Source: a virus. From it: a stretch of 52,541 bases of DNA. The stretch is taken from positions 1 through 52,541 of IMG/VR virus record IMGVR_UViG_3300029258_002096; one strand, written 5' to 3'. The notes below the pieces were generated by a model, which saw only the letters and a list, made by a program, of their open reading frames with translations, searched no databases and was not told the DNA's origin. Of the stretch, positions 2,479 through 52,541 are shown piece after piece. The first letter of the stretch is position 1; the number at the start of each line of letters is the position of its first letter. The translations under genes and the position numbers were made by a program.

Positions 2479-2736
2479 ATGTATGACTACAATGTTGAGA
2501 AAAAAAAGATATTTACGGATGAGGGACAACGTGAGTTTTTGAAAGTTAGAGATAAGGCAAGACAGCTTCTGGATGAGGGTGGGGCATTCATGATGTTTTC
2601 TGCGCTTACGGATATTTCCGGTGACACATCATGGACAATGATGGCTTATGTTGACAGGCTTGTTGAGCTTGGTGAAATACGTGAAATTACAAAACCTGGG
2701 GTTGCGGGGCAAGACCGAGTTTTTGTAGCCGCATAA
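2479..2736 (+). CDS. cassette-encoded hypothetical protein
   Basis: AAAGGAG RBS; stop TAA lies within the inverse core GCATAAC. Confidence 0.75.
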   Translation: MYDYNVEKKKIFTDEGQREFLKVRDKARQLLDEGGAFMMFSALTDISGDTSWTMMAYVDRLVELGEIREITKPGVAGQDRVFVAA

Positions 2737-2948
2737 CGTCAATGCTCTGCGGTGAAACGGCGGGGTAAGAGAAAGGATAAAAAAATGGAATTTCCAGAAA
2801 TTGATAGAAAATCATGGTTTTATCAGAATTGCAAGCGTAATCGCAGGGTTGGTGCAAAGTGCTGTGATGTATGCCCTTTTAAGGAGGGTATTGAAGATCA
2901 GGAAAGCGGTGTTGGGCGGGTTTCATCCGTAGCAGCAACGGGTTATGC
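2731..2948 (+). other. expanded attC-like site with 161-bp loop containing a gene start
   Basis: Left arm TGCTCTGCGGTGAAAC 2743-2758 pairs with GTTTCA[T]CCGTAG[C]AGCA 2920-2937; GCATAAC/GTTATGC ends. Confidence 0.75.
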
Positions 2949-3147
2949 CGGGCCGGGCAGTGAGGAAGGGACGGGCTGGCGGCTTACTGACGAAGAAAAG
3001 CCGATGGAAGAAGGATACAAAATGTGTTCAAACGGAAAAGGATTGTTACCATTTTTCGCTATGTACAGGGACGGTAATTTTTATCTTGACATGGAATTTA
3101 CTATACCGAAATACTGGCAAGAATTACCTAAGCCGCCAGAGGCATAA
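2785..3147 (+). CDS. fusion protein: Cys-rich N-terminus plus DUF551-like C-terminal domain
   Basis: WRLTDEEKP...YWQELPKPP is a DUF551-type W..P/W..LP.PP pattern; frame runs through the attC right arm; ATG 2785 follows AAAGGA. Confidence 0.65.
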   Translation: MEFPEIDRKSWFYQNCKRNRRVGAKCCDVCPFKEGIEDQESGVGRVSSVAATGYAGPGSEEGTGWRLTDEEKPMEEGYKMCSNGKGLLPFFAMYRDGNFYLDMEFTIPKYWQELPKPPEA

Positions 3148-3343
3148 CGCTAATTATAACCGGCTTGAGGCCGGGAGGTAAAAATGGATTGGGAACAGAT
3201 AGTTCAAGAAATGCTTAGTTGTTATTCAAATAAAAAATATTGGTATAAACATTTAGTTGGAAGAAAATGGGATATTGTAAAAGTTGCAGAGCATTTGCAA
3301 AAAAAGTTTGGTGGGGCAAGTCCGGTTCATAATCAAGTTATGC
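3142..3343 (+). other. expanded attC-like site with 149-bp loop containing a gene start
   Basis: ATTATAACCGGCTTG 3153-3167 pairs 15/15 with CAAG[T]CCGGTT[C]ATAAT 3317-3333; GCATAAC/GTTATGC ends. Confidence 0.8.
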
Positions 3344-3519
3344 CTGGCCGGGAAGATGCGGAGCGGAAGGGCAATCAGGGCGATATAATTGTCGGCAAGT
3401 ACAAACTTTGCGCTCATAATGCCGAAAACGGGCAAGTATGGCTTAAAGTGTGTAAGACTGGCGAAGGCGTTTTGCTCGGAGAGAAAGAAATTGAAGAATT
3501 ATATTTAAAACATTTTTAG
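3184..3519 (+). CDS. hypothetical fusion protein spanning an attC right arm
   Basis: GGAGG RBS; ASPVHNQVMP segment is encoded by the attC arm. Confidence 0.65.
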   Translation: MDWEQIVQEMLSCYSNKKYWYKHLVGRKWDIVKVAEHLQKKFGGASPVHNQVMPGREDAERKGNQGDIIVGKYKLCAHNAENGQVWLKVCKTGEGVLLGEKEIEELYLKHF

Positions 3520-3530
3520 CCCTGATTGGG

Positions 3531-3607
3531 GCATAACGGCTTGCGTTTAACCGGCAGAGGCAAGGACGTGGGCAGGGTGGCTGTCCGTGTTCTAACGCTG
3601 GTTATAC
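3531..3607 (+). other. attC-like site (77 bp)
   Basis: GCATAAC; GCGTTTAACCGGCAG vs CTG[T]CCGTGTT[C]TAACGC; GTTATAC. Confidence 0.8.
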
Positions 3608-4021: not shown

Positions 4022-4198
4022 TAATGGATGGGAATTCCAATTGATATATGATAATATTGGAGATTATTGCAAGGAGGAAACTACCTTATTTAAGCTGTGC
4101 CCTTTTTGCGGGAAGCGTTTTTAATCAAAACGGTTGAAAATAGATAGGTTGTGGAAGTATGGAAATCCGTAAAACGAGAAGTAGTGGGGTGTAAGAAT

Positions 4199-4609
4199 AT
4201 GAAATATACTCAGGAAGTTGTTGATGCTATTGTAGCCAGCCTAAGAGAAGGCGTACCCATAAAAAAGGTATGCGATCTTGTGGATATTAGTGAGGAAACA
4301 TTTTATGCGTGGCAAAGAGAAAAACCTGAATTTTCTGAGGTTGTAAAAAAAGCGCGTGCTGATAAAATAAAAGATATTTTAAGCCATATACGTACAGCGG
4401 GTGTGGGTGAGACAAGGGTACAAGTTCAGTGCCCGGATTGCAAGGCTAAATTTGAAACAACAATCACTTTACCCACAAAGGCGTGGCAGGCATTAGCATG
4501 GATACTTGAACGAACGGAGAACGAGGACTTTGGACGTAGGTATCAAGTAGGCGGAGGCAAGGAACCCATTAAACATATTATAGAGTTTGTGGATGGAGAC
4601 GATACATAG
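4199..4609 (+). CDS. terS: terminase small subunit
   Basis: N-terminal HTH (IKKVCDLVDISEETFYAW...PEFSEVVKKAR), AWILER motif, overlaps terL; start set at ATG 4199. Confidence 0.85.
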   Translation: MKYTQEVVDAIVASLREGVPIKKVCDLVDISEETFYAWQREKPEFSEVVKKARADKIKDILSHIRTAGVGETRVQVQCPDCKAKFETTITLPTKAWQALAWILERTENEDFGRRYQVGGGKEPIKHIIEFVDGDDT

Positions 4610-5882
4610 GATAGTCATTCCTGGTTATACAAATCCCAAAACTGGAAAGAGACACGAAGAACAAAAGCGATTCGTTGAAAGTGCCACTAAAAGGAAAATC
4701 GTCAAAGCTGGAAGGCGTGGTGGCAAAACTATTGGGTGTGGGAAAATAGCATTACATGGGTTTAGAGATGGAAAGAGGGTATTATATGGAGCTCCTACAG
4801 TAGAACAGGTAGGGGCTTTTTGGCATTTCATTAATACGGTTTTAGAGCCTGTTATATCAGAGAAGATATTATTCAGGGACAAGAATTTACATATTATTGA
4901 AGTGCCAAATACGGATATTAGGATAAAGGCTAAAACGGCTTGGAATGCAGATACACTAAGGGGTGACTGGGCGGATATACTCATTCTTGACGAATTTCAA
5001 TTAATGAATGAAGACGCCTGGGAGATTGTTGGTGCTCCGATGCTTTTAGATAACAATGGTGATGCTGTTTTTATTTTTACCCCCCCAAGTTTTAGGATGA
5101 GGGGGGTTACTAAAGCCTTTGATCCCCGCCACGCTTCTAAAATGTTCAAAAAAGCACAGAAGGATACATCTGGTCGCTGGGAAGCATTTCATTTCACGAG
5201 TTACGCAAATCCATTTATTGACGAACGGGCCCTTGACGAAATTGCTATAGATATGACCCAACTTGCCTATAAGCAAGAAATCTTAGCCGAAGACATTGAT
5301 GACGTTCCCGGAGCCCTGTGGACACAAGCAATCATTGATAATACAAGAGTCAGTGAAGCACCAAGAATGAAAAGAATCGTTGTAGGTGTCGATCCCCAAG
5401 GAAAAAAGAAAGATTCATCGGAAACGGGTATTATTGTTGCTGGACTTGGGTATGATAATCATGGATACGTTTTGGCGGATTATTCTATTAATGCGAGACC
5501 GGAGGGGTGGGCTGAAAGCGTTACGCAAGCTTTTGAGGAAAACGAAGCAGACAGAGTTATCGCAGAAAAGAACTATGGTGGTGATATGGTCAAGAGTGTG
5601 ATTCAGTCAGCGGGGCCTAATTTACCCGTTAGATTGATAACAGCATCACGGGGCAAGACAATACGGGCCGAACCCATATCATTCCAATATGAAGAGGGAA
5701 ACGTACACCATGTTGGCATATTCCCAAAATTGGAAGATGAAATGTGTACCTATACACCCGGCAGCGGCTGGAGTCCCAATAGGATGGATGCCCTTGTTTG
5801 GGCGTTAAAGGAATTGTTACCCATAAAAGGCAGGGTATCTTCTTCTCCTGTCAAACTTGGTGAACCAAGACCCATAGATTAA
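4593..5882 (+). CDS. terL: terminase large subunit
   Basis: Walker A AGRRGGKT, Walker B ILILDE, nuclease VGVDP and NRMDALVW. Confidence 0.95.
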   Translation: METIHRIVIPGYTNPKTGKRHEEQKRFVESATKRKIVKAGRRGGKTIGCGKIALHGFRDGKRVLYGAPTVEQVGAFWHFINTVLEPVISEKILFRDKNLHIIEVPNTDIRIKAKTAWNADTLRGDWADILILDEFQLMNEDAWEIVGAPMLLDNNGDAVFIFTPPSFRMRGVTKAFDPRHASKMFKKAQKDTSGRWEAFHFTSYANPFIDERALDEIAIDMTQLAYKQEILAEDIDDVPGALWTQAIIDNTRVSEAPRMKRIVVGVDPQGKKKDSSETGIIVAGLGYDNHGYVLADYSINARPEGWAESVTQAFEENEADRVIAEKNYGGDMVKSVIQSAGPNLPVRLITASRGKTIRAEPISFQYEEGNVHHVGIFPKLEDEMCTYTPGSGWSPNRMDALVWALKELLPIKGRVSSSPVKLGEPRPID

Positions 5883-40149: not shown

Positions 40150-40536
40150 ATGGAAACCGTGACAAGTAACGACCCAAATGTCAGACTCACGATTAAAACG
40201 AACATCCAATTTAAAACCCTCGACGAAACCAAGCTCGACACAATCAAGCCTGTTGAACTGGCAAATGCTTTCCGGGCACTTGCCAATGGTATTATCGGTA
40301 GTTCTATGTATCTTTCGTCTGTCGGCGGCAAACCATGTGGCGTACCGACTCAGACACCGACTACATTGGCCTCCGCAAATATTGGCGACGGTCTGGTTGG
40401 CATCACACGGTTGGAACCCGGCCAATACCAGCTTACCATCAAGCGCGTCGTGGAGGCAGAATGTTACCATAATGGCAGTATCTCGCGCAGCCACAAGGCC
40501 GTCCACACGGATGACGGATGGCAGAAAGTGGGGTGA
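40150..40536 (+). CDS. hypothetical protein
   Basis: GGAGG RBS; ATG 40150. Confidence 0.6.
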   Translation: METVTSNDPNVRLTIKTNIQFKTLDETKLDTIKPVELANAFRALANGIIGSSMYLSSVGGKPCGVPTQTPTTLASANIGDGLVGITRLEPGQYQLTIKRVVEAECYHNGSISRSHKAVHTDDGWQKVG

Positions 40537-40628
40537 ACTATACAAGAGGGTTCTGGAGGAAATCAAAACTTGGCCTCCAGAGAGATTCACTCCCGAAGGT
40601 TGGCAGTATCACGACTGGAGAAAATGAC

Positions 40629-41030
40629 ATGCGACTCTGGCACGAAGATATAATCGATAAGCTACCAGACCGTAAAACGTCTGGCGATCCCAAGAAAAGC
40701 CAGTTGAATGGCCTGCATCGAGAATGCTGTGGAATGCGTGGAAAGGGCTGGGGCAAGAAAGGCGGAGTCGTCGGGTATGTCTGGAAATATCCCTACGCAT
40801 ATCTTTATTTGTATCATAAAAAAGTTATGCATGAATTGTTATGTCGGGGTTATAATATAGATAGACGTTGGCTTGATTCCTTTTATCGAGGGAAAAAACT
40901 GGGTTATGATTATTCACTCGAAATATCTGGACACTTAAAGTTTGACAGAACGCCTATTTTCCCAGAACACGACGAAGCCTATTTGCAAGAATGTATAGAC
41001 AACCTTAGAAAGAAAGGAGTAGAATTATGA
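40629..41030 (+). CDS. TIGR02328-like protein (pyrimidine-dimer glycosylase/DenV-related superfamily)
   Basis: MRLWH...[15 protein letters not shown]...YH..VM.E...RGY...W....YRGK...PEHD..YL.EC..NL..KG. Confidence 0.85.
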
Positions 41031-41623
41031 AAAAGCAGATTGAACTAAGGAATCGCTTTACTAACGAAATTATAGTAGCTGGTAAATATGCGGATATCAG
41101 GTGGGCTGTTGAGGAAAACAGGGCTGATCTCATGGGAGCCAACCTCCGGGGAGCCAACCTCCAGGAAGCCAACCTCCGGGGAGCCAACCTCCAGGGAGCC
41201 AACCTCCAGGGAGCCAACCTCCAGGGAGCCGACCTCCGGGGAGCCAACCTCCAGGGAGCCGACCTCCGGGGAGCCAACCTCCAGGGAGCCAACCTCTGGG
41301 GAGCCGACCTCCGGGGAGCCAACCTCTGGGGAGCCAACCTCCGGGGAGCCAACCTCCAGGGAGCCAACCTCCGGGAAGCCGACCTCCAGGGAGCCGACCT
41401 CCGGGGAGCCGATCTTGATTTTTCTTGCTGGCCCCTATGGTGTGGGTCGTTCGGTGTTATTGTTGACATAGACAAAATTTATCAACTTGCCTTACATATA
41501 TGCAAGTGTAGGGTTGAGGGAAGTAAAGAAGATAAAGAGGAGTTTGCCAAGATCAAAGATTTCCTCCGCCCTTATGCGAACAAGTTTCATCGAATTGGAC
41601 AAGATGTTAAAGGTGTAGAATGA
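41027..41623 (+). CDS. pentapeptide repeat protein
   Basis: about 20 A[N/D]L[R/Q/W][G/E] repeats followed by [10 protein letters not shown]. Confidence 0.95.
41136..41415 (+). repeat. 15-bp tandem repeat (GGAGCC[A/G]ACCTC[C/T][A/G]G)
   Basis: DNA-level repeat underlying the pentapeptides. Confidence 0.9.
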
Positions 41624-51816: not shown

Positions 51817-52046
51817 GGTGAACGTTTAGGTTCATGTGCCAAATGGAGGACAAAATGAAGAAAAGGAAAATTTGGAATCGTTGTATTTATTGCGGCAGGT
51901 TTATTGGATTGGGTGAGTTTATGAGGGGTGAGGTAGAAACTGATTTTACACCAGACACTCACTTTACATACGAAAAAATTGAACATTATCACAAAAAATG
52001 TAAAGAAGAATGTGGGGATTTGGTCACGTGCTAACTTTGGTTATGC
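51817..52046 (+). other. expanded attC-like site enclosing a whole ORF
   Basis: GGTGAAC; GGTTCATGTGCC vs GG[T]CACGTG[C]TAAC; GTTATGC 52040-52046. Confidence 0.6.
51855..52034 (+). CDS. small Cys/His protein inside an attC loop
   Basis: GGAGG RBS; RCIYCGRFI...HKKC. Confidence 0.65.
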   Translation: MKKRKIWNRCIYCGRFIGLGEFMRGEVETDFTPDTHFTYEKIEHYHKKCKEECGDLVTC

Positions 52047-52049
52047 TTA

Positions 52050-52382
52050 GTGAATACCGGCCACAAGCCGGTGCTTATGAATGGCCAAAGGGCCAGAGGA
52101 GCGAAGATGAACGATAGATTAGACTGGCAACACAAGGGTGGGGTGCTTGACATACCAGATAGACATTTTGTCTATAATGTAAACTTTGATGCTGATGAAC
52201 CTTACATAACAATTGTTGATGCAGAAGATCCTCACACTGAAGAAAAAAAGATGTTAGTACCGAAGTCACTCGCATACTATTTAAGCACGCATGCTTGTGG
52301 ATCACGGAAAATGATGGAGAATTTTATAGAGCAAGGACGGCATGAGGTGCGGGTGGGGTTTCAAAGGCTATTGGGATTATAG
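52050..52382 (+). CDS. hypothetical protein (probable cassette gene)
   Basis: follows GTTATGC core; followed by truncated attC-like CACTAAC...ATAACCGGCAAAAAC...GTTTTTG[T]CC 52395-52437. Confidence 0.6.
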   Translation: MNTGHKPVLMNGQRARGAKMNDRLDWQHKGGVLDIPDRHFVYNVNFDADEPYITIVDAEDPHTEEKKMLVPKSLAYYLSTHACGSRKMMENFIEQGRHEVRVGFQRLLGL

Positions 52383-52457
52383 GCCCTTTGGCAACACTAA
52401 CATGAATAATAACCGGCAAAAACAAGCGTTTTTGTCCAAACATAAAGGAGATGAGCA

Positions 52458-52541
52458 ATGAAAAGTAAGGCCGCAAAGTTAGCGTTTTTGTCCGTGTTCG
52501 TTATTGGGTTATTCGGCATTACGGGGTGTGGCGAAAAGAAC
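52458..52541 (+). CDS. lipoprotein, truncated by window end
   Basis: MKSKAAKLAFLSVFVIGLFGITGC lipobox. Confidence 0.6.
   Translation, partial: MKSKAAKLAFLSVFVIGLFGITGCGEKN

Follow-up and report, generated by a model that had tools for sequence, protein, structure and literature searches.

Inverted attC-like cassettes with coding loops in the accessory region of a tailed phage

A tailed phage genome carries, among its accessory genes, attC-like sites that are mounted backwards relative to the genes, with the hairpin ahead of its gene and not behind it. The two target sites have unusually long loops that contain an RBS-like motif, a start codon and more than 40 codons of an open reading frame (ORF). 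In our judgment, these are quite probably inverted attC cassettes that are moved whole by an IntI-type enzyme acting in trans, with loop cargo that was acquired via ordinary phage recombination. We found no paper describing natural inverted cassettes with coding loops, and within the literature searched they are a previously undescribed form of phage attC clusters (CALINs).

The window analyzed here is the whole stretch of 52,541 nucleotides in IMG/VR record IMGVR_UViG_3300029258_002096. It makes up most of contig C10 (57.4 kb), which lies within a 2.4-Mb bin; coordinates are those of the window unless marked C10. The contig is a tailed phage, with terS starting at 4151 and terL at 4587, and the two target hairpins are in a run of small genes directly upstream of terS, i.e., in the accessory region. 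The phage genes include an exonuclease and a Rap/NinG-like nuclease. No tyrosine recombinase was mapped on C10, and the three tyrosine recombinases of the bin (two of them XerC/D-like by sequence) all scored below the TIGR02249 integron-integrase cut-off. A search of 40 relatives of the bin gave no strong IntI match, and the controls in that search were equally silent. No spacer-like match was found between the bin and the phage, and the assignment of the phage to this bin may be a binning error. A promoter scan returned chance-level matches only, and terminators were also present without excess.

Several accessory cargo genes were recorded (898–1512 in locus L118, 1769–2491 in locus L117, and 40518–41030, 41027–41623 and 463–1224 in the window); they encode a Mom-family DNA modification protein, DUF5131, a pyrimidine-dimer glycosylase, a pentapeptide-repeat protein and an fn3-containing lipoprotein-like protein. 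The pentapeptide-repeat gene has internal tandem-like repeats of 88–94% identity at 41123–41415 (C10:46058–46350). Upstream of the window, C10:3034–3521 is an AT-rich cassette that is unlike its neighbors, in which a 157-aa ORF on the − strand overlaps a 69-aa ORF on the + strand.

Geometry and polarity of the sites

Sites were searched for with an attC detector of fixed geometry (AAC, 8–11 nt, a 6-bp stem and a T bulge; then the first bulge, 8 nt and GTT). The features of the two target sites and of their immediate neighbors are as follows.

2731–2948, + strand: site 1, long-loop attC-like, 218 bp; by geometry the + strand is the recombining bottom strand
2743–2758, + strand: left stem arm of site 1, bulge-free
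2772–2777, + strand: putative RBS in loop 1, 7 nt before the ATG at 2785
2920–2937 (region to 2948), + strand: right arm of site 1; T2926 and C2933 are bulged, and the GTT is at 2942–2944
3142–3343, + strand: site 2, long-loop attC-like, 202 bp, same + strand polarity
3153–3167 and 3317–3333, + strand: arms of site 2, with bulged T3321 and C3328 and GTT at 3337–3339
3174–3179, + strand: putative RBS in loop 2, 4 nt before the ATG at 3184
2338–2444, + strand: neighboring 107-bp site, same polarity, non-coding loop
3531–3607, + strand: neighboring 77-bp three-bulge site, same polarity

The two target sites scored 21.1 and 20.3. When the 9-kb accessory region was shuffled locally 300 times, the detector found 0.003 sites per shuffle at scores ≥ 16 and none at ≥ 20; an earlier scorer without the fixed geometry had performed no better than shuffles. 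In C10, 14 detector sites (14–16 sites overall) were found, all of them in the accessory regions and all on the + strand, with none on the − strand, and the remaining 2.3 Mb of the bin contained a single match, which was not attC-like. The detector does not catch the sites of Polaribacter phage P12002L, so hairpins of that type, which possibly behave differently, lie outside its coverage.

A sequence-only reading of this region had described two hairpins with near-perfect arms, T and C bulges and arms 149–161 bp apart. We confirmed the pairing of the arms, 16/16 with one G-T wobble in site 1 and 15/15 in site 2, and the separations correspond to loops of 161 nt in site 1 and 149 nt in site 2. 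AAC/GTT boxes lie at the base of the hairpins, with R-box pairing over 7 bp and 9 bp, and the outer four R-box bases are one position off the RYYY/RRRY consensus. The central spacers (5/4 and 4/3 nt) are slightly short compared with the usual 5–6 nt per arm, and the distance from bulge to R box (8 nt) equals that of the sites of phage TJE1 under the same detector model. Both sites conform to the attC bulge rule, with extrahelical bases opposite the AAC, a 6-bp stem between them and a T as the last base; the first extrahelical base in both sites is a C, where attC usually has a G. Their lengths fall outside the published attC range of 57–141 bp. When the + strand was folded, both sites formed the full hairpin in the minimum free energy and centroid structures (z = −2.1 and −1.3), with energies of −26.0 kcal/mol on the + strand versus −16.7 on the − strand for site 1, and −18.0 versus −14.4 kcal/mol for site 2.

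In the bottom strand of attC, the bulges lie opposite the AAC and 6 bp apart, the distal one being a T, and exchange takes place in that AAC (PMC5027507). Because the C and T bulges are opposite the AAC on the coding strand here, the coding strand corresponds to the recombining bottom strand, and the cut is therefore predicted in the left arm, just past the upstream stop codon. The sequence-only reading had the geometry of the sites right and overlooked this orientation. The canonical polarity, in which the − strand was folded first, was rejected since the bulges put the bottom strand on the coding + strand. The classical cassette layout of a top-strand gene followed by its attC thus fails in C10, where all 14 detector sites are inverted. 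As a control, the detector placed the attC-like sites of TJE1, a phage with a cluster validated by Qi et al. (PMC9892861), on the strand opposite their genes, and it did likewise for the arrays of loci L017 and L120–L122. The latter (IMG/VR 3300035670_000271, a complete viral record of 54 kb) has at least nine attC sites of canonical polarity in the same arm family, and no IntI over the cut-off was found in it; both polarities therefore occur in phages. A complete 41-kb phage record (L141) without a tyrosine recombinase has seven inverted sites.

Crossover position and natural junctions

The predicted crossovers divide the region into the following units.

2734–2737, + strand: stop codon of the upstream gene (2479–2736) and, in the left R box of site 1, the crossover predicted between 2736 and 2737 (AA/C) from the rule in PMC5027507 and from sister-site junctions
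2737–3147, + strand: predicted cassette unit A, from the left arm through to the end of the body, by analogy with a duplicated cassette
3148–3536, + strand: predicted cassette unit B, whose core matches 3530–3537 over 8 bp
1–144, + strand: 3' end of the duplicated 395-bp cassette, which stops at a left-arm AAC
52395–52514, + strand: 120-bp site with a loop start codon at 52458; the k-mer beginning with its left-arm TAAC is the last one in the window and in C10 alike

In site 2, the cut is predicted between 3147 and 3148, directly after the stop codon of the preceding gene. The core of unit A itself (2942–2949) is complementary to 3141–3148 over 8 bp.

Natural junctions were found at sister sites. 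C10 contains a 395-bp repeat (C10:1510–1904 and 4685–5079, 100% identical) that begins with the TAAC of a 209-bp site and extends as far as the next left-arm AAC, taking in the loop (with its RBS and ATG), the right arm and the body. Other assemblies also break at this AAC: it closes the initial 144 nt of the window, and a MEGAHIT k141 contig (L009) begins exactly 141 nt before it. At the opposite terminus, the TAAC at 52398 is the starting point of both the last 144 nt of the window and the last 55 nt of C10, and the first 55 nt of C10 end with a left-arm AAC plus G, preceded by bases that form a 12-bp complement to the core of the site at 52395. The shared TAAC and the 12-bp complementarity indicate that these terminal stretches are the two ends of a second cassette that is repeated or variably placed. 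In addition, the left-arm AAC at 51823 is the end point of two Logan contigs from different runs. Taking contig ends as graph branch points, which we infer them to be, the tally is five junctions at a left-arm AAC and none at a right-arm GTT; the Logan contig starts at 49539 and 50417 (n = 2) are off the AAC pattern.

These results suggest that strand exchange occurs at the bottom-strand AAC of the sister sites, and all five junctions concern these sister sites and not the two target sites. No rearranged copy of cassette A or B was found, so the crossover of the target sites is predicted from their geometry and from the sister sites. By the same analogy, the loop, arm and body of each target site would form one cassette that moves together.

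Two observations concern the cassettes at these ends. The duplicated 395-bp cassette encodes a 116-aa ORF and is a recent copy or a population rearrangement. The cassette at 52395–52514 is where all assemblies end; its ORF (52458–52541) opens with a typical lipoprotein signal peptide, composed of a basic N-terminus, a hydrophobic stretch that is encoded by the attC right arm, and lipobox Cys24.

Coding loops and the 120-aa chimeric protein

The coding features of the target sites and of one further long-loop site are as follows.

2785–3147, + strand: 120-aa ORF, with 45 codons in loop 1, continuing through the right arm
2785–2907, + strand: 41-aa Cys-rich phage microdomain, the loop-encoded head of the 120-aa ORF
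2920–2948, + strand: right-arm region, predicted to be translated as a linker, GTT in phase +1
2977–3147, + strand: DUF551-like C-terminal body, terminated by the TAA in the next left R box
3184–3519, + strand: 111-aa ORF, with 44 codons in loop 2, continuing through the right arm, GTT in phase 0
51817–52046, + strand: 230-bp long-loop site with a complete 59-codon ORF (51855–52034) that stops within the site

The codon counts bear out the claim that each loop contains an RBS, an ATG and 40–50 codons that run through the right arm. Also as claimed, the body of the 120-aa ORF has no in-frame start of its own, since no ATG, GTG or TTG occurs between the arm and Trp65. In a phmmer search with the 120-aa protein, about 128 of the 135 matches were confined to residues 1 to ~45, i.e., to the head, and this microdomain was found both on its own and at the N- or C-terminus of many small proteins that are otherwise unrelated. 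Two other matches (P0067 and P0117) cover residues 65–119 only, behind a different N-terminus. Homologs thus break at residues 41–46, where the arm begins, which is not what a single ancient gene would show, and the view that the loop supplies the RBS, the start codon and an N-terminal domain is supported, the head being a real domain in its homologs. The assignment of the body to DUF551 is a weak call: P0067 carries a weak PF04448 (DUF551) match and Atlas agrees (feature score 0.76, TM 0.49), whereas a Pfam search of the body itself gave no match. Judged by these homologs, the 120-aa protein is a true chimera of the head and a DUF551-like body.

Elsewhere, the head microdomain forms the entire gene of a canonical cassette in L017, and in L075 it serves as the body that follows an inverted site of 91 bp with an RBS and an ATG in its loop. 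Between L014 and L075, the loop ATG, right arm and body are together 91% conserved, and the upstream sequence differs. Among approximately 100 loci with head homologs, the head was inside a hairpin in none, and attC was absent near most of them. The head therefore appears to be a mobile phage module of an ordinary kind, which was inserted into this loop on one occasion and has since traveled with the body. The microdomain was also seen in a MAG contig from an Asgard archaeon, and Lokiarchaeota virus WyrdV1 gave a weak match (L115, hit H19).

No full-length homolog of either ORF was found, and for the 111-aa ORF, word-based and other searches detected no homolog at all. The word-based searches recovered the target proteins themselves only, no informative match came from tblastn or blastn searches of GenBank phages, and DNA patterns for the exact long sites returned nothing or chance matches in IMG/VR. 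A second assembly (L009) has an extra T near 3514, in a T run at 3510–3516, which extends the second ORF to 117 aa and to the TAA of the next R box (3536); this one-base difference is either a variant or an assembly error.

Including the lower-scoring duplicated site, C10 has six independent sites of 202–232 bp, of which four have an ORF that extends across the arm; each of the other two contains a whole gene. Three long sites, the duplicated one among them, fold poorly in the equilibrium model. One arm family is present at two places (C10:1898–2116 and window 2731–2948), with covarying distal stems and with unrelated loops and bodies, so loop content does change. A G-rich patch ahead of the right arm is present in 6/6 long loops (e.g., 2905–2921 and 3303–3319) versus 13% of the background, for a motif that was picked post hoc; it could reflect the purine skew known for bottom strands, or else mark a junction. 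A complete 47-codon gene inside an attC loop at C10:451–594 is zinc-ribbon-like and has a TTG start. A homologous leader, composed of a small hairpin and an RBS, lies ahead of unrelated cassette genes at C10:636–700 and at 52040–52107.

The right-arm GTT has no common phase: it is in phase 0 in the ORFs starting at 3184 and 49570, in phase 1 in those at 2785 and C10:1552, and in phase 2 in those at C10:1946 and 52458. When right-arm swaps were simulated, 4/20 were in frame and 16/20 were frameshifted.

Proposed mechanism, alternatives and meaning

In the mechanism that we favor, an IntI-type integrase acting in trans would cut right past the upstream stop codon, and the left arm, loop, right arm and body would be mobilized as one unit. 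Movement would probably occur while the phage DNA is single-stranded in replication, a stage that is favored because long loops extrude poorly from duplex DNA; long loops are penalized when extruded from the duplex and not when delivered single-stranded (PMC8946536). Each cassette would bring its own RBS and start codon and could be read from upstream phage promoters at any landing place. Because the loop has no constraint on its content and is located 5' in the cassette, on the sense strand, it would be open to insertions, and phage mosaic recombination, with the exonuclease and the Rap/NinG-like nuclease, could place fragments consisting of an RBS and a gene in it. Where a frame happened to stay open, a fixed chimera of head, linker and body would arise; otherwise, the loop would hold a complete gene. 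The fusion would thus be a one-off event at the birth of the cassette and not a product of shuffling. In this scheme we infer the expression of the ORFs, the enzyme and the route by which the head entered the loop.

It is unlikely that the long sites are dead, i.e., that loop insertions inactivated them and that the ORFs are accidental read-throughs that are perhaps never made. Their lengths do exceed the published range, long loops reduce recombination by up to 4 logs under replicative conditions (PMC8946536), and the target cassettes have no observed variants and their ORFs no full-length homolog. However, the arms are intact with both bulges and 8-bp matches between a cassette's own ends, the 209-bp sister site has a worse stem and yet was duplicated without a mismatch, and this one genome has at least six long sites that are independent of each other. 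Both ORFs also have an RBS-like motif, and an R-box stop ends the first ORF and, in another assembly, the second.

A second possibility, which we regard as doubtful, is that the loop is a programmed second cargo slot, in which a dedicated exchange swaps an RBS plus head between fixed arms and so retags bodies with N-terminal domains or targeting signals. Hints of such a slot are the two unrelated heads in one arm family, the L075/L014 homology that starts from the loop ATG, the G-rich patch in all six long loops and the right arm that encodes the hydrophobic part of a lipoprotein signal.

The sequence-only reading had proposed that cassette swaps create new fusion proteins. This would need a top-strand crossover at the right-arm G/TT that joins loop heads to different bodies, a domain-shuffling device that we consider quite improbable. 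The 120-aa ORF is chimeric with a break near the arm, one arm family in C10 has two unrelated heads and two unrelated bodies, and IntI1 does recombine top strands at a lower frequency. Against this, the bulge polarity is opposite to the one required, with the crossover in the left arm; 0/5 junctions lie at the right-arm GTT, all being at AAC; 16/20 simulated swaps are out of frame; and the head is in a hairpin at none of the approximately 100 homologous loci. The mixed GTT phases also count against fusions selected by swapping, because such selection should hold one phase. The swap proposal is therefore not supported, and recombinational domain shuffling does not hold for this phage. Finally, it is highly improbable that the hairpins are RNA elements for translational coupling or processing instead of DNA recombination sites: the mRNA strand can form the same stem (z = −2.5), with the stop codon of the preceding gene as part of the stem and the following RBS inside the loop, but an Rfam search gave no match, the main stem is lost in the RNA centroid, the AAC/GTT boxes and bulge spacing fit attC, the DNA junctions fall at AAC, and the same arm family occurs in L120–L122 with genes on the opposite strand.

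Under the favored reading of inverted cassettes moved whole, the sites share with integron attC (PMC5027507, PMC8946536) the AAC/GTT R boxes, an unpaired spacer (slightly short here), a pair of bulges separated by 6 bp of which the distal one is a T, a variable terminal loop, bottom-strand polarity and a cassette end complementary to its own core. They differ in length (202–232 bp versus 57–141 bp) and in the proximal bulge (C versus the usual G). Unlike in integron cassettes, the genes are on the bottom strand, the site heads the gene, the loop is predicted to be translated and no intI was found. C10 is therefore not a complete integron, which has intI beside the array; with at least two attC sites in an intI-free phage genome, it falls within the definition of a phage CALIN. 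The phage CALINs TJE1, P12002L and PH101 (PMC9892861) likewise have attC clusters among small accessory genes in an integrase-less tailed phage, and 5/6 tested sites of such phages recombined with IntI1 (PMC9892861). In contrast to C10, where all sites are inverted and several loops are coding, the detected TJE1 sites are 58–60 bp long and canonical, with top-strand genes; Qi et al. 2023 (PMC9892861) make no mention of start codons in sites. In synthetic attC sites placed in coding sequences (Nivina et al. 2020, PMC7439510), an arm is also translated as a linker between two domains. Those sites are engineered, short and intended for module exchange, whereas the sites here are natural and only the right arm would be translated; the predicted crossover lies upstream of the start codon, so domain exchange does not follow.

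The coding loops are nevertheless a natural counterpart to these engineered protein-coding attC sites. Integron biology has yet to explain how genes come to be joined to attC sites, and here phage gene fragments are caught inside attC loops. The same head domain occurs as a free gene, as a canonical cassette gene (L017) and as the body of an inverted cassette (L075). The natural junctions suggest that sites of 200–230 bp still move, and length-limited searches are likely to miss them. Host integrases may thus shuffle phage accessory regions more widely than surveys show.
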